Counted from the first letter of the stretch, positions 15,971 to 64,000 are shown. The stretch is DNA of 64,000 nucleotides from Cenococcum geophilum (GCA_050273025.1 CP158635.1:10416001-10480000); one strand, 5' to 3'. The notes: generated by a model from the sequence alone, not told the origin. Translations and numbers: made by a program.

Positions 15971-15972
15971 TA

Positions 15973-16739
15973 CAGTGGGGTGTCATAAGTGTCCGTGCCC
16001 AGACCACACCAAATGTGATATTTTTTGCTAAATTACTATATAGCAACCACAAAATTAATTCTAGAGCTTTAAAATAGTTATAAGGCCTATTACTATATAA
16101 AATCTAGCTATTATAACTTTTTTAAAGTCTTATATTTTACAGTTCTTTATTAAAAGCCCTGATGTTTTACCGATTTTTTACTAAACTTACTATATTTAGC
16201 ATATATTTTCTACTACTAAGGATTAAAAATATTTCTTAAAATTCTAATATTTTATAGAGATTTGCTTTTACTAAGACACTCTATATTTAAAATTTTGTTT
16301 AAAATATATATAAAATTATTGTAGGGTTATAAAGTCAAAAAAAGTAGGTAAAAAATGAAATTCCTCATACAAAATAAAAAATTTTAACTTTATAACGTTA
16401 TAATAAACTTTTATACTTTTAAAATAATATTCTAAATATACTAAGTTACAATAAATATAAATCTTTATGCGATATTAAATTTTTTTCAAAAAAATTAATA
16501 TCTAGTAGTAGAAAATATATATTAAATATTATAGATCTTATAAGGGAACTAATAGGATTTCTAAAAGAGTTATAGGTTTTAAACCCAAAAAAAGGCTTTA
16601 ATAGCTAGATTTAATATATAATATAAACTTCAGCTATTTTTTAAAGCTTTAAAATTATTTATATGGTTGTTATATATAATTTAATGGGGTGGGTTATCTT
16701 GAAAATTCGCTTAGCACGGACACTTATGACACCCAACTG
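15973..16739. mobile_element. Non-autonomous Tc1/mariner-type element (767 bp), fold-back-like
   Basis: 26-bp TIR cagtggggtgtcataagtgtccgtgc / gcacggacacttatgacacccaactg, TA TSD, plus further internal inverted blocks. Confidence 0.9.
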
Positions 16740-19700
16740 TATAATCTGCAAAAATACAAATAAAAGATTTATTAATTTATTTAAACTAAGTAATGCGAGT
16801 GTTGGTTACATAAGGGGATATTACGTAGCTATGGTTCGTAGATAGTATAATAATTATTATTCTATATATCTTAATAAGGGAGGGCGAGGAGCTTAAGGCT
16901 CCTTGCTACGCTAGTGCCGCGGCGATATATAACGGCAACTTGCTATATATAATGGCAATGTGCCTTATATAGTAACCACTTACCTTTATTCCTAATACTA
17001 GCAACTTTTCTTTTATAGTTGCTATCTATATATATATACCGCTTAACTAGCGGAATAAATATCAGTCCTTTTTACTTACTATTGCTATTATAATATAAGT
17101 CTCGCTGCCCCAAAATTTGCCTTTTAGCACGTAGTGCTTTCTTACTTAGGAGTTATAGGTAGATATCTTGTTTAAAGGGCCGCTAAGGCGCTAGTAGTAA
17201 GCGAGCTAATAGCGATTTTCTATCCCGGGGATAGAAAATCCTAATTAGCTAGGTTAAGTTAGGGTTTATAGAATGTTATACCCCCCCCTCTAAAAAAGTT
17301 TTAGCAAGAGAATCTAACTAATTAGATAACTTTAACCGCTGGTTAAAGTTCCTAAATATTTTAAGACCTTATATAACTAAGAAATTTCTAGGGACTCCCT
17401 TTTAACCTAACCTTTAACTTATATACGTAGAGTATTTATGTTAATAAATGTCTCTAGTGCCTTATTTGGGTTTGCCTTCGTTATTATATCTACCGGGTTA
17501 TCTTAGCTATTAATCTATTAAATCTTAAAAAGTTTTTAACGCTTATAGGATTGCCGAAGTGCTATAATATTAATTATAAGGCGCTTCTTCTTTATAGTAC
17601 TAAGCTTAACTAAATACTTATAGAGGGAATATAAGTTAGTGTATACAATTATAGGGATAATAGGAAGTTTAAGTCGATCTATAATTATCTTTAGGGTAGT
17701 TCCAATTGTAATTACTATATTAACTTTGCTAACTATTCTATATATCTCTAACGCTAAAACACTTTAGGTAACGCGTTTGCTCGTAGTTAAGCTCTAATAG
17801 ATAAAATTGCTATAGATTGTGAAGTTATTCTCTCTAGTAAATTTATTCGCGATAATAATTTTATATCCTAATTAGGAACTAAAATCTTTGTTATTTATAA
17901 ACGATCTATTAATAAATATAAAGAGCTTAGCAGTAGGAAGATTAATAGGCACGTAGAGTAGTCCCTGATTAAGATAGTTTATTTACTAAAAAAGACATTT
18001 ATTTAGGGTAAGAACGTCATCCTTAGTTAGTTTTTAGTATTAGGTGGCAATGGAGAGATTAAATAAAGCCTTAGGTTAATAAATAGAAGCAATATAAGCT
18101 TTGTAAGCGTATTGCTCTATATATCCTTACTTTAGGGAATTAACGTTAATAACGTTAATCTTTTTACCTTAACCCTTCTGGCGCAAAGCAATAAAATCCT
18201 TATTTAGGGAGAGGATGTATTTATTAAAAAGTAATAGTATTATTAAATTAAGCTTTTCCTTTAGCTTTGCTATAAGATTTACCTTTACTAGCTTATCCTC
18301 TTTAAGAGCTAAGAATTAGTTATCTCCTAAGATAATTATATTATTAGTTTATATACTAACGATTCTAAATAGGGTTCCCGTAGTTATAATAAGGAAGTAG
18401 GGATTAAATATAGAAGTAGTTATTAAAAGCTTCTCTTTATAGTGCTTACTGTAGGTAGCCTACTAATAGGTTTCTACCTCTGCAATTCTATATAATGGCT
18501 TAAGTATAACTATAATTATATCTTTAGGATATTGGTAACGAATTTGCTCTAAAAGGTATGTTAATATTAAGCGCTAAAGGTATATCTCTAATTAGGTGTA
18601 GGCCTAAGTAATATCTCGTAAATAGACCGCTATTTTATTCTTTATTAAGGAGGGAGCTAATATAATAATAACTTATTAACTAGCTCGTTAAATTATAGGG
18701 GATTATGTAAGAATTATCTCCTTATTATTGTCGTTGTAACCTTAGATAATAAGCCTTAATTTCTTAAATAGGGCATTAGTAGCCTTACCCTTAATCTTAT
18801 TAACTATCCTTAACTTAAAGATATAAACTTTATTAAACTTAATAGGGTTATACTTCTTAAATTTAAAGACTCCTCTTATAATAAGACTGTTGATCTCCTG
18901 CTTATTAGATACTTAGAAAGGAGCTTCTAAAGTTATAATATAACCTTCCTTTTAGAGCTGTTTTGCGAGCTTAAAGTTAACCTTCTCTTTAGCTATTATA
19001 AAGGCCATTAATAACTTAACTCTGCTCTTAATGGCAGCAATAAATTATTCTTTAAAATTAATAAGATATTAGCGATTTTATAATCCCTTTAGGCGACCTC
19101 TACTGCGTTATGGTTATAGCGTATCTACTATAATTATTTTAGGATTGTAGTTGCCTTCTAGAGTACGTTAATTGTGGTTCTCCTTTAGGGTATCTTTTAG
19201 GGCATCCTGTAAAGGCTTAGATTTATTATTTTTGTAGTAAGGCTTAATAATATTTAAATGGAATTAAGTGGGTTTATAAGGCATTTAAATAGTATAAGTT
19301 TAATTATTAATTGCGATGAGTTAATATAGGCCTAACTATTCTCCCTTTTTATGCTATACGCGTACCTTAAACTAGAGTAGCAGATTAAGCGTAGTTAAGG
19401 TGTTTAGGCTATTTTTTATTCCTAGTGCGTTATTAACCTAGTATATAGCGTAGAGATATCGCACCTCCTTTATTGCCTTATAAATAGCCTTAGCTTATTA
19501 TATAATAGAGGGAGATAGTAAAAAATTATTAGTTATTTAAGGGTAGGCGCTAAAGACTAGTAATATAGGTATAAGTCTATCTAGGCTAGCGGAATTGTTA
19601 ATAGCTTTAACAGCTATTTATAAGGTAAGTTCTTTACTAGCATTCTTTAGTTTTAAAGAGATAATCTTATATACGCGGCGTAATGGCGTATAATATTGTT

Positions 19701-20623
19701 ATAAGAGGCTAGCCTAACCAAAATATATAATTATCTAATTGACAGTATTACTGGTAAGTAGAAGGTAAGTTAAAGGTACGTTAAAGATAAGTAAAAGGTA
19801 AAATAAGTTTTTATATATTAAAGGACAAATACTTCTAACTACTTCTATTTAGAGACTAATTGCTAGTTCTTCTCTAGAGGGGAATTAGCTTCCTATATAT
19901 TCCTTTTAAAACGCTAGTAAAACCTTTTGCCTCTAACCTATTTAACTGTGTTTTCTAGAATATAGATGGGATATAGATAAAACCTCCTACCGTTTTATTA
20001 GATATATACCTTCTAGGGGATTCTATTACAATTACCTCCCCTTTTAGGGTTTTAGTTCTTTAAGACTTCGCCTCTACTAAGCTTTTATAGAGTTCTAGCT
20101 AAAACCACTAGGGAAACCCTTAGTAGAAAGGTACTTTATAATGCGGCTTATTACTAGCTTTTTACTAGCGCGGAACTTTACTTTATCTTCTATTTCTCTA
20201 CTCTTCTCCTACCCTAGCTCCTTATAGTGCTTTTATAATGGGATTTTAATAATAGTAATAAAAATTTGGTGGGATTTACCTCTCTAATTTTGGGAATTTG
20301 TTATAAATAGATCTAGAGGTTGTTCGGTATAACGCGTTAACTAACTACTATCCCTATTTACCTAAATGGGCTTTAATAATAACGTCTTTTATTTTAATTT
20401 CTTTCTGTTTATAAATTATTGTCTCTCCCTTATCCTTTTATTAATAATATTATTTATCTCGTTCTTAAATAGGCTGTTTTTATTATATCTTACCTTTTAG
20501 CTTCTATATCTCTAGCCGTACTTCTATTACTGCCTTATTATCTTTTTTAAACGCGTTTATAAGTAATAGGATCTCTACCTTATCTCTTATAACAATGCTA
20601 ACTTCTTAGAGTATTCTCTTATA

Positions 20624-21453
20624 ATGGCTTATAGTCCTTCTACATATCCCTAAACCGGCGGTAGTGTTATTCCTCTTTTAGTGACGCCCTAGATAGCGTC
20701 TATTACTTCTACGGCAATTTCCCTAAAATGCTATTATTGCTATATTTATGCTCTTATATAGGATCCTTTTTACATTTATAAGATGCCTTACTCTAGTAAA
20801 AATAAATCTAAGTGCTCTTATTGCCGTAGTAGGAGAAAGACCTATATCCTAGTATTTCCTATTCTATCCTATTCTAGATTTTGCTAATTATACTAGATCC
20901 CCGCTGTCTATATATATAAAACTTATAGGCTTTAACGCGCTATTTAAGATTTCCGCTAACATCCTAATAGTAATAGGTAAGGATAGAAGGTATCTTCCCT
21001 TACTTATAGACTCTTTAATTTAATAAGGGTTTCTACTACTATGGAGATATAATAATCTCGGATATATAGTATCTAGGAGTGTATATGCAAACAGCTTATC
21101 CTTATTAATAATAATATTTATACTCTTACGCGGGCTACTTTAGCTAGGTAAGTTTCTCTAGTAACTTACTTAGGAACTATACTAACTCCTTTAGCCAATG
21201 TTTTTTTAATCCTTACTTAGATGCTAATTTGGAACTTAGGGATATTAAAGATAGCAATAAACGTTAAGATAAACGTTCTCCTTGCTAGTCTTCCGCCTAT
21301 ACTAGTTCTTTTAGTACCTATTATTCTAAGAAGAATATTAGTAAAAGTGCTAATACTTCTAGGGATAGAGAAGCCAATAATACCGTTAATAATAATATTA
21401 AGATAGAAGAGGAGACTCCTATTACTACTACTAGTATTTAAGTTATTACCTAA
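20624..21453 (+). pseudogene. Three-exon antisense accessory gene in the Gypsy C 3' region; ~245 aa, Zn2Cys6-like N-terminus, low-complexity C-terminus
   Basis: Exons 20624-20851, 20897-21147 and 21195-21453. Introns 20852-20896 (GTATTT..GCTAAT..TAG) and 21148-21194 (GTAAGT..ACTAAC..TAG). Exon 1 reads 'KCYYCYIYALI*DPFYIYKMPYSSKNKSKCSYCRSRRKTYIL'. Confidence 0.7.
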
Positions 21454-21720
21454 CTCTTTCCTTTTTTTTATAGAATAGCTTTATATAGTGCTTCTTAGGT
21501 GCCTTTAAAATACTCTATTATTAGAAATAGACTTTATACTTTAGGGATACCTTTGTTTTAAGCTTTAGTAATAATTTATATAAACGCAGTATACTACTAT
21601 AATCCCTATATATAATAAACAGGTAGTGTTTCTATAGGTGCCTTATAATTTCTTAAAATTTCTAATTCTTTATAGGCTGTCCTTTTACTCCTCTTTATAC
21701 CATTAACTCTACTACGTATC

Positions 21721-24700
21721 TGTATAATTACAGCACCTATTATACCAAACGCGTGCTTACGCGTTTACGCGTTCAGTGCACCAACCACTTACTTACGCGT
21801 CTAGTGCACTTATAAAGCACTAACTAATTAGGGGGGAGGTGCATCAGTATATAGACCACGTAGTCTGCTTTATATAATCAACAGTCACCATCTAAACAAG
21901 CATACAATACTACATGTATTTCGTGCCCGTGGATACAACTCACTCGTGCTATTAAGTTAGTACAAATACTAATCAGTAAGCGCGCACAGATTAGCAATTA
22001 CTTAATACCTCCCCCCAAGCGATACTCGACAGCAACCACCCGTTTAGACTCCTAGTATAACCTACTAGAAGGTCAGAAGTCAGGGATTACGGACTTATCT
22101 CCAACTCTATATACTTATTTAAGTCTTAGTATGGTTTACCGGAAGTATAATAGACGCAAATACAGACCTATACGGAACCCCCTACCCTTAAACCTCAAAC
22201 CCCTATCCCTACTACACCCTCTTTTAATACCTCCGACGTCTTTTTAGACCCCTTATAGAGACCCCCTACCCCTTTACAAACTACTACGGACCTGTTAAGA
22301 CCCCTTACGGACACCCTTACCCTTCTATAAACCGTAACGGATATTAACCGCCTTTATAGACCACTACAAGACCTCTTCCACCTATTACGTACTACACTAC
22401 ACTATATAATATAGCAGACCTAAGGAAGCAAGTTAATAAAGGCCAGGAAAAGTAAAGGCAGGGAGCCGACCTTATGTCTATACCTAACGTTAACAACTAC
22501 ATTAAATTTAAAGTTCTTAAATATGAATATTTTAAGCTTATAAATGTTAACCTATGGGAGTAATACTAGGAAGACTTCGCGGACTTTACGGAAGCTATCT
22601 TTAAAGTATACAACCCTACTACTATCCGTAACCTACGGACCCTCTTATATAACTAAGGTGTATGGGTTAAAAGGAATAAATAAGTTACTGTTGCATAGTC
22701 CTTATATAACATAATATATAAAAAGGACTAAATAGAATGGATTAAAGAGGAAATCCTAGACCAGTTCTAAGAAACTAAGGAACTCTTTACTTCTTCTAAA
22801 CTTAATATAATTGCTAGCCTTATACCTAACCCACTTAACTAAATTCGTCCTATAAACCTAAGTAGTTTTAGAATTAATCTTATGGGCTAAAGTACACCTA
22901 GTACTTAAGTTATAGACCGCAATACCCCCGTAAACCAAAATACAGACTAAATTACCCCTATTGTTCAAGTCACAGATCCGCAAGCCATATATTTATAAAC
23001 TACAAATCTATAAGTTATAGATCCGCAACCTACCTAATTAAAGACCTACGGCAAGGAGCTAGCTAACCTAGCTAAGCTCTATACCGATAAATCTAAGTAC
23101 AGCGGCAAAAATAATAACTTTAACTTTAAACTAACTATCTTTACGGACCTCTGCCAAAAGGCTAACATTCCTAAATAAGAGTTTAGCCAAGCCTACTCTA
23201 CTATGCTGCGCGGCCTAGCACTTAACTACTACTACACTAACCTTAAGAGTAACCCCCTTGGTGTTCCTTTTAATAAGCTATATAAAGCTATACGTAACTA
23301 CTTTAAAGGACCGGAATATAAGTGTAATATCCTTACCTAATAGAATGCGACCAAGCTACGGACCGTAATAGATAAGAATACTAAAAAATCGACCATAGAG
23401 TGCCTGTAAATCCTTATTAAAGACCTCCACTACCTATAGCACGGTTTTAATATTAAGCTTTAAACGGACGACTTTCTGCATAATAAACTTATTACGGCTT
23501 ACCAGGAAGTAGAGCCCTGCAAGTACACCTACTATAAGCCTATAGATACCTTAGCTGGCCTTATTAATAATCTACGCTCCTCTATTATAACGTATAAAGT
23601 CTTAAACCTACCAGGTAGCACTTAAGCCTTTATTACGGATATTTAATATCCACAAACAGACTTAGACGTCTACTTTACGGACCGCCGCTACCGCTAGCAG
23701 CACCCATACCAACTAAGTCCTACCTATAACCCCCATAGCAACCCCTATACAAAAACATACCCCCGCAGATAAACCAGCTAGAAGTGCTTCGTGTGCGGTA
23801 AGGAAGGATATTAGTCTATAAGGTATACCCAGGAAGAACGTAATAAGTCTAGGAAGAGACTTAATAGCCGTATTAACCAGTTTATTTTAGAATACAAAGG
23901 AGAGGAAGTAGAAGAGCCCCCTAATAAGTTAATAGAAGCCCTTATAATTGACTTTAACTTAGACGCTTAAGAATAAGAGACCTTAAAGACATTCCTAACC
24001 ACTTTTGGACCTTTTACGGACAGCTAAGCCTTTAATATTATAACCATATTAGCCGACCATTCCTTTATACACTTAGTTACGCCTAAAAACCATTCCATAA
24101 GCACCCCCATTATAGACGTTATAAATCACAAGCAGGACCTATTTATATATATCACCACAAAACGCTATACCCCTAAGGAATTCTACAGTGTTATAATTAA
24201 CACAGGCGCCTTTAAGAAGTCTACTGTAGGCTATGGACAATACCTCGTATATAGGACTACCGCAAATAATAATACGGATATTAATATTACGCAAACTAGG
24301 GCCGTAAACGTCCAATTCAGCATTAACTTAACTGCATTAATTAGATCAGTTATAGTTAAGACCCTAATTAGCCTAGTTAACTTCCATATAGTAAAAACAG
24401 ACACCCCTTTCTTACTTTGCCTTGCGGATATAGACAGGTTATAGGTTTACTACAACAATATTATAGATACCTTAATCGGCCCTATAACTACCCCAGGAAG
24501 CAAGCATATTACCCTACTAATTATATAACAATTTAAACACCCGTTCCTTATATAGGGAGAGACTTTACAGACCTACATTTAGGAATCTTTCAACTATAAC
24601 CTGTGCTACCTTACCAGTACGGAAATCCACCGTCTGCACCGCCGTTTCGGCTACCTGTTAGCCAAAAAGCTATATAGAGTCCTTAAACGCTCTGGACATA

Positions 24701-27700
24701 ACAACGTTAATAAGAAGGCAGTTAATTACCTAACCAAATACTGCTCCTTTTGCTAGAAATATAGACGTTCCCTAGGCCAATTTAAGTTCACCCTTTATAA
24801 GGACCTTAACTTTAACCACTTAGTGTATATAGACATTATATATATTAACGGTAGCCTAGTATTACACATAATTAATAAGGCAACCCGCTACTAAGCCGCC
24901 CGTTAGTTACAAAATATATCCACAAAGCACACTTAGGATATTTTACAGACTTGCTAAATTAACACGTACGTTGGACCTCCTAAGTATATTACCCACGACG
25001 CCAATAGGAACTTTATTAGCAAGGAATTCCAGTAGTATGCTACGGCCATGGCTATATTAACAAAAGCTGTTCTAGTTAAGGCGTATTAGTCCGTTAGGCT
25101 TATTAAGCGAGCTTACCTAGCTCTACGGAGAGCTTATTAGATTATTACGGACGAGTATAAGGATATCTAAAAGGAACTAGCTTTACAGATAGCCGTAAAA
25201 GCTGTTAATAACACCGCTAGCCCTAACGGACTAGTACCTACCCTTTTAGTTTACGGAGCCTACCTAAGGATAAGTAACCTAGGCCCCCCTACCCCGTCTA
25301 TTACGGAATAAGCAGCTATAATACGGAAGGTAATAGCTGAAATAGTCAAATTACGGGCTAAATAAACTATTAATAACGCCCTATACTACCGTAACGGACC
25401 TAATACAACCTTAGTATATAACCTCCCGCTTAACTCTAAAGTCCTTATATGGCGTGAAAGCGGTAGTTAAAATGGACCTTACTATCTACTAGCCGTAGAA
25501 AACGAGATGTGCTACGTATAGCTTCCTAGCGGGCTAACTAGCTTTAAAAGCACGTCCGTAAAACCCTACTTTCGGCCCAAAAACACCCATGACGTTAAGC
25601 TAGATAAACTAGAAGCAACCACTAAACTAGATGAACTAGAAACGACTACTGAATTAAATAAACTAGAGGCACCTTTACCTATCCTAGAGGTCCCTTAGAA
25701 ACCTACTAAACCTACTAAACCTGCCGTAAAGTATAGCCGAGGACGCCCCTATAAGAATCCTGTAACGGAGAACTACTTAACCTCTATAGGCATATCCGTA
25801 AAGCAATCTCCGCCTACGGATATATCAGTTCTAGTATAGGAAACCCCTTTTACAGACTTATGGCGTAAAGAGATCAACGGACTACTTAAAAAGGGTATCT
25901 TTATGATTATAACGGAGAGAGACGTTCCGCAAGGCGTCCGTATATTTAACTTACGCTTTATTAATAAGATTAAGCACCCTAGTACTAATAAAGCCTTTAA
26001 GAAATTAAGGCTTATTATATAAGCTTATAACAACTAGGGAAAGGACCTAGTCCTTACGCAATCGCCTACAATTTAATGGGTCAGTTAACGGATTATACTC
26101 GTACTTACGCCTAGACTATAGTAAACTAAATTCGTAGCCCTTTACTTACGGGACATCTTATAAGCCTATATATAGTCTAATACCTACCTAAATAGGGATA
26201 TCTTTATATAACTACCCTATAAGCTTAACCTATAACCAGAAATAATTTTACGGGTTATAAAATCTCTTTATGGAGTACCAGAAGCCAAAAACCATTGGTT
26301 TAAGACATACTACTAGCACTACGTTAGTAAACTTAAAATGGAATAGTTAACCTACAACCCCTGCCTCCTATACAGCCTATTAAACGGCCTTAGTATTATT
26401 AGACTCCAAATAGATAATACCCTCTTCTTAGCAGACCGGATATTTGCGGACGCTAAAGAGACTAAACTATAAGAAGCTAAGTTCCTAGCAAAGCCGCGAG
26501 AGCAGTTAATTAAGTAGACTCTAATTAAGTTTAACGGAGGCTTAATTATATAAAAGGGCAACTTAATCTAGCTAACCTAGGAACGCTAAGCTTAAAACCT
26601 AAAGCTTATTATAGCAAAGCCTACGGACCTCACCAATTCCCACAGAGAGACCCGTAAGACTATAAATACAAAAGACTAATACGCTGCACAGCGTGCAAGA
26701 GGCGCCTATATTGCCACAGTCTACTAACCTAAATCTGCCTACAACTTATCCTTTACGGCCTAGGTAGTAAATCCGTAAAAAGAAAATATTAAGCAGCTTA
26801 ATAAGCGTATTTAGTGGCAAATTAACAATACAGCAAGGGGACTTACTTTTGTACCACTAGACCTAAGTTTCCTTAGCTTACTAGCATTTACGGACGCCTC
26901 CTTTACCAATAATAAAGACCTATTATCACAAATCGGCTTTATAATTGTACTTACGGACCGTAATTAGGACGCAAATATACTATACTAGTCTTTAATTAAG
27001 TGCAAACAAGTAACCCGTAGTATACTAGCTTCTAAACTATATACACTAGCTTATGGATTTAATATAGCAGCCGTAATTAAATTAACAGTCTAGAAGATTT
27101 TATAACTAGAGTAGTTACCCCTAGTTTTATGCACTAATTTAAAGTCCCTTTATAACTGCCTAGTTAAACTAGGTACAATATAAGAGAAGAGGCTTATAGT
27201 CGACCTAATATGCTTACGTTAGGCCTATAAATAACATAAGATTATGGAGGTTAAATAGATTAGCAGCAGAGACAACCTAGCGGACGCTATAACTAAGGCA
27301 AAGCTATATTAAGCCCTTAAAACCCTAATTAACACAAATAAGCTTAACCTAAAAGTTATAGAATAGGTAGAACGGGACTAACGGAGTACCTATAGTACGC
27401 CTACGGCCCGTTAAAAGGCCGTACGGCTCATTATACGGCCTATTCTATGGACCGTAAGCTATCAGGTGAAAAAACGGTGGAAAGCTGTAATAAAACTTGG
27501 TGGACTTACGTAACCTGCCAAATTCTACCATATTCTGCCACAGTAGTTAAATTAACTAATCACGATTTTCCATACCAGGCATGGAAAATCGCCATTAGCT
27601 CGCTTAGCACTAGCGCCTTAGCGGCCCTTAAAATCTAACTTACTGCCCATTAAAAGGCCATACGGTTTATTTTACGGACCGTAAGCAGGACTTACGGCCA

Positions 27701-28087
27701 GCTTAAGGTACCGTTTAAAAGGCAGCCTAGACAGCACCTTAGGGGAGATTTTCTATATATTTTCCTTTATATTCTATAGTTTTATTAAAGCAATTACGGA
27801 GGCTATATACAGGTGGTTTCATTTTTTAAGTACTGCCAGTATATAATTACAGCACCTGTTATACCAAACGCGTGCTTACGCGTTTACGCGTTCAGTACAC
27901 TAACCACTTACTTACGCGTCTGGTGCACTTATAAAGCACTAACTAATTAGGGGGGAGGTGCATTAGTATATAGACTACGTAGTCTGCTTTATATAATCGA
28001 CAGTCACCATCTAAACAAGCATACGATACTATATGTATTTCGTGCCCATAGATACAACTCACTTATGCTATTAAGTTAGTATAAACA
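21721..28087 (+). mobile_element. Ty1/Copia family B, full-length and RIP-inactivated
   Basis: 248-bp LTRs 21721-21968 and 27840-28087. TSD gtatc. Single gag-pol at ~22131-27381 with CCHC 'CFVCGKEGY*S', PR 'INTGA', RT 'QSPTI', 'RDIL*AY' and 'LQIDNTL' (QTDD-type), and RH 'FTDASF' and 'ADAITK'. Confidence 0.95.
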
Positions 28088-31000
28088 GTATCTTTAGTGC
28101 TAGGCTAAATACTCTCCTTTTATCCCTAGGGGATCTTTCTAAATTCCTAAGGCCACTTTTTATAGTACTACTGCTCCTTCTTAAATAGCGTCTCCTTTAA
28201 ACAGTATCCCTAGTAGTTCTCCTATAGATCCCTATAGGCTTCCTCTTATAGAATTTTAGGATCCCTATTATAATAGCGAAATATTTCTATTTTTAATGCC
28301 TATACTTAATCCTATAGTTTTAATTTATAGGGTCTTCCCTATTGCTTTACCTATAGCATATCTAGAACCTTTTCTAAATCTTTACCTTTAGTTCTTAGGA
28401 AGGTTTTAATTATAGTATTATATCCTAGCTAAAGGTACTCCTTAGGTTCCTAACTATTATACGCCTAAGAGTATCCTTCCCAACAAACTAAAAATTCGCG
28501 CTTTTTTTAGCGCCATCTTTAGTCTAAAATATCTTCTACATTCTATTCTAGTTCCCTATTAATTTTGCTAGGTAGGGGCAGTTCTGCACTATTTTTCCTC
28601 CGGTATAGCTTTAGTAAGGAAACATAAAATATGGGATATATTAAATAAGATTTCGGTAATTCCAATTTATAGGCTTAGTTTCCTTTAGTTTTCTTAACTA
28701 TTTTAAAGGGTTTAAGCTACTGGTGATCCAGCTTCTTCTTAATGCGTTTTATTTAGATATTTTTTATAGATAATAAGACTTCGTCTTCTATCTTAAATTC
28801 TTTTAGTATATATTTTTCGTTATAGTACCTTTTTTATATAGCCTAGGCGTCTAGTAAGTGCTTTTTAAGTTCCTCTCTACGAATTCTTATCTATTTAATT
28901 CTTTTAGATGCTACCGGTGCCTTTCTTTTAGGAATAATATCCTTAATATTCTAGGGGTTATTTACTTTTACCCCAAATAATACTTTATAAGGGGTTATTT
29001 TTATACTACTATAGATGCTTATATTATATACGTACTACGCTAAAGCTAACTATAATGTCTAATTATCCTGTTAATAATTAATATAGTAGCGGAGGCAGTA
29101 TTCCAATAACGCATTTAGACGCTCTGTTAGCTTGTCTATTTATAGGTAGAAGGTAGTACTTATCCTTTACTATATTTTTAATAAGAGACAGAATAAAAAC
29201 TAAAATATACTATTAAATACGGTACCTCTATTAGATATAATTCCCCTTAGCATACTAAATAAGAGCCACCGTTCTAAAAACAGGTCTACTAGTTCTACTA
29301 CTATAATCGTTATTATAATAGTAAAGTATCCTAAAAACTTTATATACCTATTAATAATTACTAAGATAGTATTAGTAACCTCTTTAGTTCTTATCTTAGT
29401 AGGGAGTAAGCCTATAATAAAATCTATTGTTAATTCTAATATAGGTCCCTATAGAATAGGAAGCACTAATAACTTACTATATAGGCGATGCCTAGATATC
29501 TATATCCTTTAGTATGTATTACACCTTAATATATAGTCCTTAACCTCTTTAGATATTCCGTCCTAAAAGTATTTCCTTTAAATAGCCTTAAGGGTTCTAT
29601 TAGCACCGTAGTAACCCCTAAAAAGGTTATTATAGAAAACCTTTAAATTTTTGTCTTAAATTACTTAGTCCTTTAGGATATATATAGCACCCTTAAGGCA
29701 TAATAAACCCTTTTAGTCTTGCTGCTATAGCTTCTTAGTAACTCTAGCTAAGTTAGTCTTTATTATATCTTTCCACCTCTCCCTAAAGGTAAAGGCGTCC
29801 CTTTATTAAGCTTAAAGAAGAAAATTTAGAAAGGTTTTATATAGATTACTTACTTTTATTTTACCTACCACTATTATAAACTTAAGGCGTAGCATAAGAC
29901 GTTTTAAACTATTAATGCCAGTAAATTCTCCTACTATTATATAGTATACTACGCTATAAATAGGTATCTCGCCTATTCCCCTTAGATCTAAAAACTCGCA
30001 GCTAATACGCCGTTAAGTTAAAGGTGCCGCGATACCTCTAGCACATCCTATAGAATTTTTACTAATTTTAGGGTACGCTAACTTTATAATATCTACTTGG
30101 TTTATAACCTAGTTTATAACTATATTCTACGGCTCTATAATTATATTACTTTACAGCTATATTACTAGGACCTCTACCCTATTACAAAATTCTATAGTTC
30201 TAGGGAAAGAGTCTTCTATTTTCCTAAGCAAATTTTGCAATATAAGGATTATTTCCCCTATATTGTCCTAGATCCTCTCTATCTTATAATTTAGATATCT
30301 TAATAACCTATTAGCAGGATTTGTCTTCCCTAGGTAGTATATAATTTTAAAGTTATACTATAATAGTGCCTTTACCTATCTTACTTATTAACTGCTTAAT
30401 ACCTTTACAGTTATAAAGTATTCTAGGTTATTATAGTTTGTAAGGACTTTAATAGGATAATTACTTCCTATATAATAATGTCGCCAGTGCTTTATTACTG
30501 CGATTATTGTAAGTAGCTCCTAGTTATGCGTTATATAATGCTACTTTATAGGGGTTATTTTCCTTAACTAAAACGCTATAGGATGCCATTCTCCGTCTTT
30601 TAATTAAGATATAATTGCCCCTAGGGTAAAGCTAGATATATCCGTTTTAAGGTATATATATAGCTTCTAGTAGAAGTATATTAGGATAGGCGCTAATATA
30701 AATAAATCCTTTAACCGGTTTATTGCCTACTTAGCAGCTTCCCTATATATAAAGGGTTTTAACTTCTTACTATTTTTAAATCTTTTTAGTAGATTAGTAA
30801 TTAGGAGTATTACTTATAAATAATAAATAATAAACCTTTGGTAGAAGTTTGCTATACCTAAGAAAACCTATACTTCTTTAAATATTATAGGGTATAGCCA
30901 TTTCCTAATAATATCTACCCGGCTTTTCTCTATTAACACTCCATTAACTCTAATAATAAAGCCTAGAAAATTAATGCTAGTGATATAGAAAGAGCATTTT

Positions 31001-34196: not shown

Positions 34197-37100
34197 TAAT
34201 TATATCTTTAACTCTTTTATTTTTTTATAGGGTTTTATATAGCAACCTCTTTAATAATTCCCCCGTAGTAATTATTTCTAAAGGTCTTATAAAGTTAGAT
34301 GGACTAGCCGTAGCTTCCTAGTCTACTCTTTTATAAGTAGAGGGAATATGCTCCTCTAAGGAGACTCTCTAAGCCTTCTATGGTAAGGGCGTTGCTTTAT
34401 AGGGTATAGGAGTATAGTCCGTTATTATCAATTAATAGCTATATGTTCCTAACGGATTATAAGTAATTAGAATTATAAGAGGCCAGCTTAACCGGAACGT
34501 ATAATTATCTAATTAATAGTATTACTGGTAAGTAGAAGGTAAGTTAAAGGTATATTAAAGGTAAGTAGAAGGTAGAATAAGTTTTTACGTATTAAAGGAT
34601 AAATGCTTTTAACTACTTCTATTTAGAGACTAATTGCTAGTTCTTCTCTAGAGGGGAACCAGCTTCCTATATATTCCTTTTAAGACGCTAGTAAAACCTT
34701 TTACCCTTAACCTATCTAACTATATCTTCTAGAATATAGATGGGATATAGATAAAACCTTTTACTGTCTTATCGGATATATACCTTACAGGGGATTCTAT
34801 TACAATTATTCTACTTTTTTAATACTATTATATGCCTTAACGGGGACTTTCTTAACCTTAATTACTATTGCCTTTATCTATTATTAGAACTCTATAAATA
34901 AGAAGTTCTTTTCTATATTATGGATAATTTAATTAGGGGGTCCTAAATAGACATTAATTTAGTATAATTAAAGGGTATTCTATACGTTTCTAGCTAATAT
35001 ATCTTTTAAAAAACGCGCGGCTTAGAAGGAGGTTAAGAAGTTAATAACTTAGAGTACTGGCTTGCCGCTAAGATATATAACGTTAATAATAATACAGAAG
35101 TTAAAGTTATAGTTATTTTTAAGGGTAAACTTAAATCGGCCAGGGGACTTTTAGTTTATTTAGTAGTAATAGTAGTATTTTATAAGATGCTTAATTGCTT
35201 TAACCTTAACTTTATAGCCTACTTATTAAAGAACCCTAAGTAATTAATGAATGGATAGGTGGCCAAAACGATAGTATAGTTGGCGTAATTCTGACTTAGT
35301 TAAGTGGCTCTAAGTAATACTTTTTTTAGTTAATAAAGGAGTAACTAGGGGTAACCCTACTTGCGTATAACGGGCACCTAATTATCTCCCTAAATAAGTA
35401 TATTTTTAAGGTTATTAAGCCTAACGCCTAATTTATCTATATCTTTAATATAAAATAAAAACGGAGTGTTTATAGGAATAATATGGAAGGTAATATACCC
35501 TAAGGGGGTTTAGACCCTAATTATACTAAAAGAGGTTGTAATACCCTTACTAAAACGAATTATGTGTTGGCCTGCTGTTGAATAGTTAATCTAAATAGAG
35601 CTATTAAGCTATTAAAGGGCTTAAACTTAAGGTTCTCCTACTATAGATACTCTTACGGCTTTAGTATCTAGTATAATACTATAGAAGACGTTTACCGAGT
35701 ATTTATTATTAAAAGAGAACGTAGAGCTCTTCTTTAGCTTATTAAAGATATTTAACTTTGTGATAGAATGGAGCGTAGATTGGTTATTAAGAATAGTAAC
35801 GGTTTATATGCTATCTACCTTACTATACTTAGTAAAGTATTAGTTAGGAAAGTAGTTCTTAATTTCCATATCTATAAGGAGCTGTTTAGTCTCATTAACC
35901 TTACCCTTAAGATCTTTTACGCCTTTATATTAAACTAGGAAGCTTTAAAAGTAGGCCGTAGTAACCTTATAATTTTTAATATTTCTTATACTCTAACGGA
36001 ACTTATTATATACCTCCTTTTACTTATTAAGGGAGTGTCTAGTTAACTAGTAATTTGGCTTCTTATAAATATAGTACTTTTTTTAGCAATTACTTTAAAA
36101 TAAACCTCTATAAGGACCTCTATAATTACCTTATAGTTAATATTAATTATACTCTCTTCTATATTCCCTACTACGGCCACTATATATTTAATTAGTCTAG
36201 TTATAATTATATTAGTTAGGAACGCTTAGTTAGGTAGGGCTTTTAGTATAAAACTATCAAAATTCTTATATTTATATTATAGTACCTACGGCAGAGCGTA
36301 GCTTGGTATATACTCCTTTAAATATATCTATAGGTTTATACAGCGCTAAATTGCACTTAGGAACGCTATAGTAGGCTAAGATAACCTAGTCCCTTAAGCT
36401 GTTCTTATTTTAGTAAGTTTTAGTAAGGCTATATTAGATTTTCTAAAGTTTATTAAAGAGTAGTTAAAGGCACTCTAAATAAGTCTTTATTGGGTTAAAA
36501 GCAATAACTCTCTAGAATATAGTCTCTCGCTATTTAGATATATAAAGTTGGCGATTCTTATTAGTCTTAAAGTGGGCTCTAGTAAGCTAAAGCATTATAT
36601 TAAAGCTATAGTTTTTACCCGTAATATAGTCGTAATAAAATGTTACTACCTGTCCCTTTAATATAATAGAGAAAGCGTGGTAGTACTAATAGCATTAAAT
36701 TTTAACCTTATTGCAATAGTTATAAAAGACCTGTAGTTTTACTCTAAGCATATTATATAGTTCTCCTTTAAACTTCTTCTCTTCGTCTAAATATACCTTT
36801 ATTAAATTCGTAACTTCTTATAGTAGAGACTTACCGATTAGCTGGGATGGAGGGGGTAAAGGTAGTAAAGGGGGTGGTAGAAGAGCACCTTTAGGTAGGA
36901 GAGTACCTCCTAGTAGGAGAGTACCTCTAGGTAGGGGATTAGTATTCTAGGGGTTTTAATACAAATTAAAGTTGCCTTTTAAAGAATATAGGTTAGTTTT
37001 AGGTTTCTATAGTTAACGTATAATCTTAGCTTCCGTCTATACTAGTTCTTTTATACTAATAATAACGGCCTAAATATTACTAGTAATTGGGTTACCGTTC

Positions 37101-47386: not shown

Positions 47387-48070
47387 ACGTAATCCATAAG
47401 CTAGTGGCCCACCCCAAAAACTCACTAAAACCCCCAAAAATCGTTCTTCAATATCTTAATAACAGCTTAATAACAAATTATAATAAATTATAATTAGACT
47501 TTTATACTTATTTTAAGACCTCTATTAAAGTTTTAGAGTAATTAAATTAGCTATTATTACTGTATAATTACAGCACCTATTGTACCAACCGCGTGCTTAC
47601 GCGTTCGGTACACCAGGTACGCGTTTACGCGTTTAGTGCACCAACCACTCGCTTACGCGTCTGGTGCACTTATGAAGCACTGACTAATCAGGGGGGAGGT
47701 GCATCAGTATATAGACCACGTAGTCTGCTTTATACAATCGACAGTCACCATCCAAACAAGCATACGATACTACATGTATTTCGTGCCCGTGGATACGACT
47801 CACTCGTGCTATTAAATTGGTACGAACAATTACTATATTAAGATTTAGCTCTTAAATTTAAGCCTAATTATTATATCTTAAAAACCACTTATTAAATTAC
47901 TTTAAAACTTTAATGGGGGTCTTAAAATAGGTAAAAGAGTCTAATTTTAAATTTTTATAATTTATTGTTAAGCGGTTGTTAAGATATTAAAGAACGATCT
48001 TTGGTTTTTTTTAGTGGGGTTTTAAATTGAGCCACTCGCTTATACTGGGCCACTAGCTTGTAAATCACGT
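47387..48070. mobile_element. Pogo/Fot1-type MITE with long (~170 bp) inverted arms, TA TSD
   Basis: ta|acgtaatccataagctagtggccca ... tgggccactagcttgtaaatcacgt|ta. The arms continue inward (tcgttcttcaatatcttaa / ttaagatattaaagaacga). Confidence 0.85.
47561..47828 (+). mobile_element. Solo LTR of Copia family B, barely RIP-mutated
   Basis: tgtataattac...tacgaaca matches 21721-21968. TSD attac at 47556-47560 and 47829-47833. Confidence 0.95.
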
Positions 48071-52431: not shown

Positions 52432-55400
52432 TATTCATACCAATTTAATAGCACGAGTAAGTCAGATCTAGGGGCACGAAATACATATAGTATCGTATGC
52501 TCTTTTAGATAATGGTAACTGTTAATTCTATTAAGGTAGACTACGTGGTCTATATACTGACGCGCCTCCCCCCTAATTAGTTAGTATATAGGTGGTTGGT
52601 ACACAAACGCGTAAATACGCGTTTGTATACTAAGTGCTATAATTATATACTAGCGGTACTTGGAAAATGAAACTACTTATATATAGCCTCCGTAATTGCC
52701 TTAATAGAACCATAAAACACGTAAGGAAATATATAGGAAATCCCTCCCAAGGTGCCTTCTGGGCTGCCTCCCAAATAGTGCTCTAAGCTGGCCGTAAGTC
52801 CTGCTTACGGTCCGTAAAATAAACTGTACGGCCCTTTAATGGGCTATAAGTAAACTATACGGCTTTCCGACGGGCCGTAACTAAACTATAAATACTCTAT
52901 TAGTCTCGCTCTACCCATTCTATAACCTTTAGGTTAAGCTTATTTATATTAATTAGGGTTTTAAGAGCTTGACACGGCTTTGCCTTAATTATAGCGTCCG
53001 CTAGGTTATTTCCGCTGCTAATCTATTTAACCTCCGTAATCTTATGTCGTTTATTGTCATAGTGCTGCAATGAAGTAGACTGAATAACTACGTTATAGTA
53101 TGAAGAGGGGAAGAAGGTGGAAAGGGGGTATTGTATACAAATAGTAGGGCCGGCCGCCAAGTCGCTAGTAGTGGGCTAGCTAACAGTAGGGAACAGTACG
53201 AGATAGTATAAAATAGTATGCGTCAGGTCAGTGCCGTGACAGTACTCCTCTCCCCTAGACGGTTTGGTCCCTAAACTAAATAGATAACTTAAAAATAGGC
53301 AGTATACGGGGTTGCCTATTTTCTACCGCAAAGATATTAGTTCCGCTTACCGCCCTTAACTAAGCTAATAGCGATTTTCTATGCCGGGCATGGAAAATCC
53401 TAATTGGTCAGTTTAGTGAGTAAGGTCGGCAGAACTCTATACCACCACCTAAATCGGTCCGTGCGGCGTTTCTTGGCAAGAATTTGGCTAATTAGATAAC
53501 TTTGACCGCCAGTTAAAGTTCTATAACATCTTAACCACCACAAATTTTAATGCGGTGGTCGGCCGCGACCTTAGCATAACTTTTCCTTATCTTGTGCCCA
53601 GTCTAGGGGTCCTAGCTTCTTAGGGTGTTGCTTATAGAAGCGCTATACAGCTTATTTATAACCCTTTAGGTCTTCCTCTAGCTGCTAGGTTATATCCTTA
53701 TAATATTTCCATTTAATCTTATAAGTTAGGCCCTAGGGGTCTTCGTTGTGTACATTAAGGATTTTCTTAAACTCCCATTTATCTTCTATATTGCCGTTAT
53801 CGTCTCTCTCTGCTACTCGTCCTTATACATTACGGCGCTCTACAGTATTAATATTTGCTTAGCCAGGGATCTCTTTAGTAGCCTAGAGGCGGACCTTAGA
53901 TGTATAAAAGGATTTATTTACTTAGATGTGGTTTAGGAGGTCTACTATAACTGCCCCTTAGTATACTGCGAGTACGGGGTATAGGCCATCCTATTTGTCG
54001 TCCCATTTCTTCTTAGGTCTATTTATCTTTATATTTTCTAAGCTAACCATAACTATATTACCTTCGTAGAATAACGCGCTCTTATCCCTACGGGTATTAG
54101 CATTGTTTTTATAGCGTTACTATAAAATCTGGGCTAGGGCCTTAAGCTATATTAATATCCGCTTAAAGCGGTTGGCCATAGAGTCTGCGTGGAAGAACTC
54201 CTTCTTTACTTATACTAATAGTGTTAGTAAGCAGGGGCTAGTAGGCTCGATTCCGAGGTGAGGGTTAAAGCCATAGTTTACAAAAAATAAGGAGATGCCT
54301 ATACTCTCGTTAACTTGGTTATTTATAGCAAACTTAGTAAGCGGTAGGTAGTTAACCTAGTCGTCCTATATAAAGCTAACAAAAGCATAAAGGTATTTAT
54401 TTACGGCGGCGTTAATAATTTTAGTTTAGCCGTCCATTTCTGGGTGTTAGGCTAAGCTTAGTTACAAGATTGTTTTAAGGCGTTTACTTAGTTATTGCCA
54501 GAAGTCGCTAATAAATTATATGCCGCGATTAGAGATAATCGTGCTTAGTACACCGTGGAGCTTATATACGTTATTAATAAAGCTATTAACTAACTCCTCT
54601 ATTAAGAGTCCTGTTACTAGAACGAGGTGTTATATTTTAGTTAGGCGGTCTATAATAATAAGGATATATTTATATGCCTTACCATAGCGTTAGTATACTG
54701 GCAGTGTTGTGATATAGTCAATTAAGATATTGGTTTATAGGCAAGCGGGTAATTCTAGTGGCTTTAGGAAACCGGGCGGGGCAGAACGGGGTCTTAGTGC
54801 GAAAGCATAGGGCATAGTCTTTAACGAAGGTAGCCGTAAACTGGGAGATTCCTAGCCATTAGTATATTTAGTTTAAAAGGTCAAGAGTCTTAACCCGGCT
54901 AGGGTAACTAGCGGGGCCGCTGCTATAAGAGTGATGGGTAACTTTTAGGCAGAGGTCTAGGGCGTTAGGGATGAAGAGATATTAGCGGAAGTAGATCTAT
55001 CCGTCAATAATACTATATTCTAACTTATCGCAACGGAGTAATTTCCTAATTTTCTTTAGCTAATAGCGAGCTTTCTAATTACGTAGGGCTGCTACTATAT
55101 CTCTTGTGAGTTTGTTCTCCTAGTATCCTAGCCAAATTAACTTATTTAGTGACTTTTCGGCTATTTTAGGGTCTAGAGCGGCTATAAACTCCGCGTTATT
55201 AGAGTTACGGGACTTATATAGTAATTCTTCTAAGATTATAGGGTTAACTTTCTAGGGCGGTATAATAACTTAGGCTCGGTAGCGGAGGCGTTTGTTATTA
55301 GCGTCCTTAGGCCTTATTCCTAGTAGCCAGCTTAGGGCGTTAGGGAGCGTGGCTTTGCTACTAGGTTTATATATAATTACAAAGTTAAACTATAAAAGGA

Positions 55401-63473: not shown

Positions 63474-64000
63474 TGTAAGAGGCTAGCCTGACCGGAATAT
63501 ATAATTATCTAATCGACAGTGTTACCGGTAAGTAGAAGGTAAGTTAAAGGTAAGTTAAAGGTAAGTTAAAGGTAGAATAAGTTTCATGTATTAAAGGATA
63601 AATGCTTCTAACTACTTCTATTTAGAGACTAATCGCTAGTTCTTCTCTAGAGGGGAACTAGCTTCCTATATATTTCTTTTAAAACACTAGTAAAACCTTT
63701 CGCCCCTAACCTGTTTAACTATGTCTTTTAGAACATAGATGGGATATAGATAAAACCTCCTACCGTCTTATTAGATATATACCTTCTAGGGGATTCCGTT
63801 ATAATTGCCTCCCCTTTTAGGGTCTTAGTCCTTTAAGACTTTGCCTCTACTAAGCTTTTATAAAGTTCCGGCTAAAACTACTAGGGAAACCCTTAGTAGA
63901 AAGATACTTTATAATGCGACTTATTGCTAGCTCTTTACTAGCGCGGAACTTTATTTTATCTTTTATTCCTCTGCTCTTTTTCTACCCTAGCTCCTTATAG
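63474..64000 (-). mobile_element. Gypsy family C, second copy (C'): 3' LTR, PPT and start of 3' region; runs off the window
   Basis: LTR 63474-63803 (tgtaagaggc...) matches 19700-20030, and 63804-64000 matches 20031-~20227. Confidence 0.93.

Follow-up and report, generated by a model that had tools for sequence, protein, structure and literature searches.

A probable spliced antisense gene, now RIP-mutated, in the interval from pol to the 3' LTR in a fungal chromovirus

Accessory genes are rare among LTR retrotransposons and, to our knowledge, none has a known function. In fungi, the closest known case is brtn, reportedly described by Zhao et al. in Virology in 2011 from the Boty-like elements of Botrytis. 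In the excerpts considered from three publications (PMC8365987, PMC7264820, PMC4227169), brtn is an extra gene that lies antisense to gag-pol, in the interval between pol and the 3' LTR of fungal Ty3/Gypsy elements with a chromodomain. Two supplements of PMC8365987 make no mention of brtn, and the records listed by a literature search held no further fungal antisense case. Plant elements provide the other point of comparison, with antisense ORFs referred to as aORF-3R that occupy the same interval between pol and the 3' LTR in maize Grande1, rice RIRE2, Silene Retand and Phaseolus PvRetro13. According to the excerpted text of PMC7264820, these are found in most copies of a family and show a degree of conservation comparable to that of the proteins of the element itself, their function being unknown.

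Applying a copy-centric comparison on a 64,000-nucleotide stretch of Cenococcum geophilum DNA (hereafter the window) and on metagenomic relatives of one of its retrotransposons, we recognised at 20624-21441, on the plus strand, what we regard with a probability of roughly 85% as a dead, RIP-mutated, three-exon accessory gene of chromovirus family C, oriented antisense to gag-pol. Like brtn and the aORF-3R, this is an antisense gene placed between pol and the 3' LTR; it is spanned entirely by 67 of 80 loci from other copies, with a dN/dS of 0.20. An earlier note, made from the window alone, had proposed an element-borne antisense gene with two introns, and codon bias, in-frame indels and splice signals across 68 sequences bear this out. 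Dead copies alone were thus enough to recover the gene model, its introns and a signature of selection.

The host element, Gypsy C, is a chromovirus (Ty3/Gypsy with a chromodomain) on the minus strand. This assignment follows from Pfam matches (stops read as X) to RVT_1, RNase H (RT_RNaseH), Integrase_H2C2, SH3_Tf2-1 and Chromo, ordered on the minus strand from 31387 to 28396, with the chromodomain (28396-28542, minus strand, E 5.8e-07) at the end of pol, and from the two LTRs that bound the element. The 5' LTR lies at 34473-34808 and the 3' LTR, whose termini were read, at 19699-20034, both on the minus strand; the latter adjoins a polypurine tract at 20036-20046, read directly on the minus strand as AAAAGGGGAGG. 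Self-comparison of the window revealed three copies of this 336-bp LTR, the 3' LTR being 89% identical to the 5' LTR and 91% identical to a third copy at 63476-63808. From 63476, this third LTR opens a second family-C copy that reaches 190 bp into the internal region and ends with the window at the equivalent of 20227, so that the antisense gene is not covered by it. The whole window is AT-rich, with a GC content of 25-42% in 2-kb windows. The spacer of about 1.9 kb that the earlier note had described between the chromodomain and the polypurine tract was recovered as 310 bp (28396-28086) plus 1,674 bp (21720-20047) once a nested element was subtracted. In the RIP-corrected consensus introduced below, the pol frame also seems to continue for about 95 codons beyond the Pfam chromodomain match (28107-28395, minus strand), with one residual stop and an Arg/Gly/Pro-rich end close to the insertion point of the nested element in the window.

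This nested LTR retrotransposon splits Gypsy C at 21721-28085 on the plus strand and is delimited by a pair of 244-bp LTRs (21723-21966 and 27842-28085, 94% alike) and by a 5-bp target site duplication, GTATC, on both sides. It is probably Ty1/Copia-like, judging from a domain order seen by eye, in which a weak, sub-threshold Pfam match to an integrase core (E 0.0027) precedes an RT-like motif, itself seen by eye. Further copies of its LTR were observed at 47560-47826 and 52432-52647. Elsewhere in the window, at 15971-16741, about 710 bp match their own reverse complement at 66% identity, and represent either one large palindrome that has degenerated or a pair of repeat copies in inverted orientation.

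The model of the antisense gene comprises three exons and two short introns on the plus strand. Exon 1 (20624-20851, 76 codons) has a Pro/Ala-rich start, cysteines at codons 36 and 37 and a C-x2-C-x6-C motif at codons 64, 67 and 74. It is followed by intron 1 (20852-20896, 45 nt, GTATTT ... CTAAY ... TAG), by the strongly basic and helix-prone exon 2 (20897-21147, 83 codons plus 2 nt), by intron 2 (21148-21194, 47 nt, GT[A/G]AGT ... GCTAAC ... TTTAG) and by exon 3 (21195-21441, 82 codons including the stop), which is Ser/Arg/Lys-rich and then mildly acidic at its end. Non-coding spacers flank the gene, at 20047-20623 on its upstream side (plus strand) and at 21442-21720 between its stop and the end of pol. 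The letters on which the initial proposal was built are all present in the window, namely the ATG at 20624, Cys at codons 36, 39, 64 and 67, TAT at codons 52 and 74, and two GT-AG introns with CTAAY sites (GTATTT/GCTAAT/TAG for intron 1, GTAAGT/ACTAAC/TAG for intron 2); likewise, removing the 47 nt of intron 2 joins exon 2 to an N/K-rich frame that ends with TAA at 21439-21441. The window copy is nonetheless a dead, RIP-mutated one from which protein production is impossible, with 13 premature stops in its frame (three in exon 1, eight in exon 2 and two in exon 3). The window contains 39 CxxC motifs over its six frames, and two of them separated by 15-30 residues within one frame would be expected 0.19 times and were seen once; the motif alone is therefore not significant, and it is the comparison of copies that carries the case.

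Copies of the region are abundant. Two DNA runs each contributed some 4,000 contig pieces that matched it at no less than 80% identity and covered all of its 30 bins, and the differences counted in run X1 were nearly all transitions (A>G 89, T>C 121, C>T 80, G>A 80, against 26 transversions); the region is a constant, high-copy, RIP-mutated part of family C. Of the 372 candidate stretches in a metagenome scan, 217 were confirmed, and 80 loci were kept. The presence of the region in other family-C copies, on which the original proposal depended, is established by the 67 loci that span the whole gene, the 13 others having been left out solely on account of a contig, or a match, that stopped within the gene. 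These 67 metagenome copies and the window constitute the alignment of 68 sequences used hereafter. All 67 are RIP-mutated (GC 28-39%) and an intact copy of the gene was found in none of them, the 57 that are in frame carrying 3-15 premature stops (median 11). Across the 68 sequences, the start codon reads ATG in 30 and ATA in 38, and the stop codon is TAA in all except one. Two side observations concern RIP in this family. It also affects CpG, since the ACATAT of the window (20643-20647 and other sites) is ACGCGT in most other copies, and whether G survives at TpG is strongly influenced by the base that follows, the median number of the 68 copies that keep it being 26 for TGC, 11.5 for TGT and 6 for TGA.

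A RIP-corrected consensus was derived from the alignment by calling C under a T majority wherever at least three copies and at least 5% of them keep C, and likewise G under A. As anticipated by the earlier note, it contains an open spliced ORF of 241 codons, but the six-cysteine pattern expected with it is absent. Subfamily consensuses are not free of stops, with one remaining in group G3 (40 sequences, including the window) and three in group G1 (21 sequences). In addition, four short ORFs that read as other copies of the gene were recovered by a full HMMER search, the query being the frame of the window with X at its stops. Where the window has stops at codons 10, 23 and 46, ORF P0001 has Q, Q and L, respectively, and it also has Cys at codon 74; ORFs P0002, P0005 and P0006, from other copies, have Q or R at three of the exon-2 stops of the window.

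RIP correction deletes TA, and hence stops, in every frame, leaving ORFs of at least 50 aa on both strands; an open frame is therefore weak proof by itself, and the existence of a gene was decided by four tests that are independent of open frames, i.e. codon bias, phase shift, indels and splice signals. Differences between the G3 and G1 consensuses were distributed over codon positions 1, 2 and 3 as 39/21/71 (p 4e-07), with a dN/dS of 0.20 in the frame of the model and of 0.89 and 1.5 when that frame is shifted. The same trend was found with four subgroups (73/43/104, p 3e-06), the third position being more variable than the first and the first more than the second in each of the three exons. 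The most variable phase corresponds to coordinates with a remainder of 1 after division by 3 in exons 1 and 2, and to a remainder of 0 in exon 3, and this move between exons 2 and 3 is exactly what the 47-nt intron predicts. Indels provided the third line of evidence. Among the 17 that were recurrent (shared by at least three copies), all four within exons were multiples of three (12, 6, 3 and 6 nt) as opposed to none of the 13 outside them (Fisher p 4e-04). The exonic ones comprise in-frame deletions of 12 and 6 nt in exon 1 and indels of 3 and 6 nt in exon 3, while the non-exonic ones all measure 1 or 2 nt, including the 11 in the upstream spacer, a sole 1-nt indel in the downstream spacer and a 1-nt indel in intron 2 (21189) shared by 23 copies. 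Purifying selection, which had been put forward as a check on the gene, is thus evident in the dN/dS, the codon positions and the exonic indels alike, and the ancestral gene was under purifying selection while family C diversified, a signature implying that it mattered to the element as long as the latter was spreading.

Neither flank shows codon periodicity (p 0.24-0.28 in 20047-20623) and both contain frameshifting indels only, which limits the gene to 20624-21441. A hint of periodicity at 20047-20330 (p 0.017) was discarded, as it vanished with four subgroups (p 0.28). Transversion polymorphism per site was also lower in the exons (0.076-0.092) than in the flanks (0.17-0.42). Two results run contrary to these, as the divergence between G3 and G1 is no lower in the exons (0.175-0.193) than in the flanks (0.158-0.186), and the codon pattern is weak when transversions are taken alone (10/5/12). 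Taken to its end, such doubt would mean that no gene ever existed, the motifs, splice-like signals and open frames having arisen by chance in an AT-rich, RIP-mutated spacer and through RIP correction itself. Chance would indeed supply the CxxC pair 0.19 times per window, CTAAY and GT/AG are common in AT-rich DNA, frames are opened everywhere by the correction, and neither a homologue nor RNA support was found. It would not produce a codon-position bias (p <=1e-06) restricted to the frame of the model, a phase shift across intron 2 that matches the model, or indels in multiples of three in four of four exonic cases against 0 of 13 elsewhere, with flanks devoid of both periodicity and in-frame indels, and the no-gene reading is close to refuted.

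Splice signals are almost invariant across the 68 sequences, in agreement with the conservation that the proposed introns called for. At intron 1, the GT is kept in 63-66 of the 68 copies, the A of the acceptor in 68 and its G in 50; at intron 2, each signal base is kept in 65-68 copies, except for the C of the branch site, which is kept in 48 and is T in the others. Both introns are retained in all 68 sequences. The two in-frame stops of intron 1 (TAA at 20885-20887 and TAG at 20894-20896) are ancestral, because no copy has C or G at these T/A sites. Furthermore, a usable start codon is absent from exons 2 and 3, exon 2 having no Met at all in the RIP-corrected consensus. The persistence of introns in a retrotransposon would be explained, following established retroelement logic, by the orientation of the gene, since the packaged genomic RNA would carry only the reverse complement of the introns, which the spliceosome would not recognise, and they would consequently survive retrotransposition. 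Retrotransposition reporters exploit the logic of an antisense intron, and the introns kept here on the antisense strand are its counterpart in nature.

The coding signal could alternatively originate from the sense strand of the element, the plus-strand gene being a mere echo of a minus-strand ORF in the spacer, such as an extension of pol or an env-like gene. An ORF of 195 codons is in fact open on that strand in the overall RIP-corrected consensus (20896-21480, overlapping exons 2 and 3), with a dN/dS of 0.36. Over exon 3, moreover, it shares its least variable codon position, the second, with the plus-strand model. Because the strands have this position in common there, the choice between them in exon 3 rests on the comparison of positions 3 and 1, which is weak (31 against 26, p 0.6), together with the evidence from the introns. 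Several features are difficult to reconcile with a minus-strand origin. This ORF is cut by the 1-nt indel of intron 2, it contains seven stops in G1 with a longest open run of 89 codons, and it lacks a Met within its first 121 codons. Its codon pattern over exon 2 (15/25/41) makes the second position more variable than the first, exon 1 lies outside it and yet displays the same periodicity and in-frame indels, and the plus-strand splice signals would be left as an unexplained coincidence. We therefore judged the minus-strand ORF to be itself the echo, and consider a sense-strand source of the signal very improbable.

The antisense gene of the plus strand encodes, in the consensus, a product of 241 residues with a pI of 10.8. 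Its layout consists of a Pro/Ala-rich start, a CC pair, the motif C-x2-C-R-S-R-R-K-T-C, a middle part that is very basic and helix-prone, and an end that is mildly acidic. Charge is unevenly distributed, the pI being 10.6 for the product of exon 1 (14 K+R vs 2 D+E), 12.0 for that of exon 2 (18 vs 5) and 5.3 for that of exon 3 (14 vs 15), with a net charge of +17 over residues 61-120 and of -5 over the last 20 residues. The idea of an acidic tail before RIP, advanced from the N/K-rich frame of the window, is only partly upheld: in exon 3, correction raises D+E from 10 to 15 of about 82 residues and lowers N+K from 17 to 9, but the protein as a whole is basic. AlphaFold, applied to an alignment of 24 natural copies (alignment A3), returned a model with a mean pLDDT of 39 and a pTM of 0.21, giving no more than a hint of helices in the exon-2 product, the predicted ones being at residues 93-106, 123-149 and 153-174.

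The cysteines of exon 1 were central to the earlier proposal, which read them as a cluster resembling Zn2Cys6. The Zn2Cys6 domain (PF00172, PROSITE PS00463) follows the pattern C-x2-C-x6-C-x5-12-C-x2-C-x6-8-C. Codon-by-codon comparison of the 68 sequences supports ancestral Cys at codons 36 (TGC in 42), 37 (TGY in 28), 64 (TGY in 34), 67 (TGY in 21) and 74 (TGY in 11), the TAT (Tyr) of the window at codon 37 being a product of RIP. Reading TAT at codon 74 as a RIP-altered Cys was thus correct, all the more so as P0001 has Cys there. Codon 38 was ancestrally Arg (CGT in 35 of 68), and so was codon 39, which reads CGY in 14, TGY in 21 and TAY in 33 of the 68; as RIP turns only C to T and G to A, the surviving CGY identifies Arg as the ancestor. 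The Cys39 of the window, counted as part of the proposed cluster, was consequently made by RIP from Arg, and the first CxxC is also a RIP product. A further Cys, at codon 87, falls within intron 1 and derives from CGC, and the consensus product has two more Cys at residues 140 and 167.

Codon 52 is less clear-cut. It reads TAT in 65 of the 68 sequences, TGT in two and TAA in one, and two copies with G is a background level, which 15 of the 122 AA sites, a context not targeted by RIP, also display. The two copies with TGT rank 29th and 30th of 68 and are thus outside the least mutated ones. The proposal that this TAT conceals a Cys is not supported by these data, and the ancestral residue was most likely Tyr, about twice as likely as a hidden Cys. 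The ancestral pattern accordingly reads C36-C37-x26-C64-x2-C67-x6-C74, with five secure Cys and no second half, instead of the six-Cys spacing first suggested. In other words, the Zn2Cys6 label was based in part on a cysteine that RIP created, which we regard as a useful correction.

That this element-borne protein is a genuine DNA-binding transcription factor of the GAL4 (Zn2Cys6) type is improbable, although some features would recommend such an identity. The motif C64-x2-C67-x6-C74, with its Arg/Lys-rich R-S-R-R-K-T loop and its location in the front half of the protein, resembles the first half of a Zn2Cys6 domain; Cys74 is confirmed, and a basic, helix-prone region follows the cluster, in a model of low confidence. 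If codon 52 were Cys, moreover, C52-x11-C64-x2-C67-x6-C74 would fit the last two-thirds of the Zn2Cys6 spacing, and TGT sites are prone to RIP in family C (a median of 11.5 of 68 copies keeping G). Set against these are the RIP-made Cys39, the TAT of codon 52 in 65 of 68 copies, and the lack, in the consensus, of any C-x2-C after C74 that could begin the second C-x2-C-x6-8-C half; in family C, two of the five secure cysteines (36 and 37) are adjacent instead. Zn_clus was also unmatched in the six frames of 20036-21722 (E up to 10) and in the 24 natural copies (E up to 1), and a PDB profile search gave no match; all of these are weak tests, their queries being RIP-damaged, with X at the stops of those compared with Zn_clus.

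Searches for relatives were consistently negative outside family C, whether in Pfam, the PDB, the ESM Atlas or protein searches. No Pfam family was matched by the six frames of the spacer 20036-21722 (E up to 10; stops as X, RIP-damaged), and the matches obtained with the 24 natural copies (PAN_3 in two, Mito_morph_reg in one and Cation_ATPase in one) were taken as noise. A word-based protein search with the window's frame yielded 34 candidates, none of which matched at E up to 10, and the same type of search with alignments A1 and A3 retrieved only the short ORFs P0001-P0007, which read like family-C copies. The PDB profile search produced zero matches, ESM Atlas had no usable match to P0001, and a tblastn search for paralogues in other families, across the window and the 80 loci, found only family-C copies. 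Among RNA data, run X21 contributed eight reads, each matching in part only, and run X22, whose RNA status is a guess, two short pieces; neither intron corresponds to any of the 10 joints listed.

From its position, the antisense gene may have had its own promoter and 5' UTR within the approximately 0.58 kb next to the LTR (20047-20623), from which transcription would proceed toward pol and converge on it. The encoded protein would be stabilised by a metal through its cysteines, would bind nucleic acids through its basic region, and could act on the expression of the element or on silencing by the host. As a guess from its composition, to which we would give somewhat less than even odds, it may have been a small metal-stabilised nucleic-acid-binding factor serving the element, for example by regulating its expression. 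A bolder and unlikely possibility is that the cysteines, five of them secure and codon 52 perhaps providing one more, form with the basic helix an undescribed zinc-binding, nucleic-acid-binding fold, which the chromoviruses of many fungi would encode in a spliced antisense gene in order to regulate their own expression or to counteract silencing by the host. Should this be true, the gene for that fold would be the fungal retrotransposon equivalent of a retroviral accessory gene.

Compared with known systems, the gene of family C is not new in kind, as Botrytis brtn (2011) and the plant antisense ORFs came earlier. A more distant parallel exists in the human retrovirus HTLV-1, whose HBZ is a spliced antisense regulator gene at the 3' end, encoding a bZIP protein and transcribed from the 3' LTR; HBZ and the family-C gene have in common a spliced antisense location at the 3' end, and no relation between them is implied. 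The closest known case is brtn, with which the likeness, as far as the available descriptions go, is one of position and orientation, so that the family-C gene may be an unrelated gene at the same position. The aORF-3R of plants, as portrayed in the excerpted source, likewise share the position and orientation of the family-C gene. They differ from it in their plant hosts, and the gene of family C is set apart by its cysteine group and by its two short introns of fungal type.
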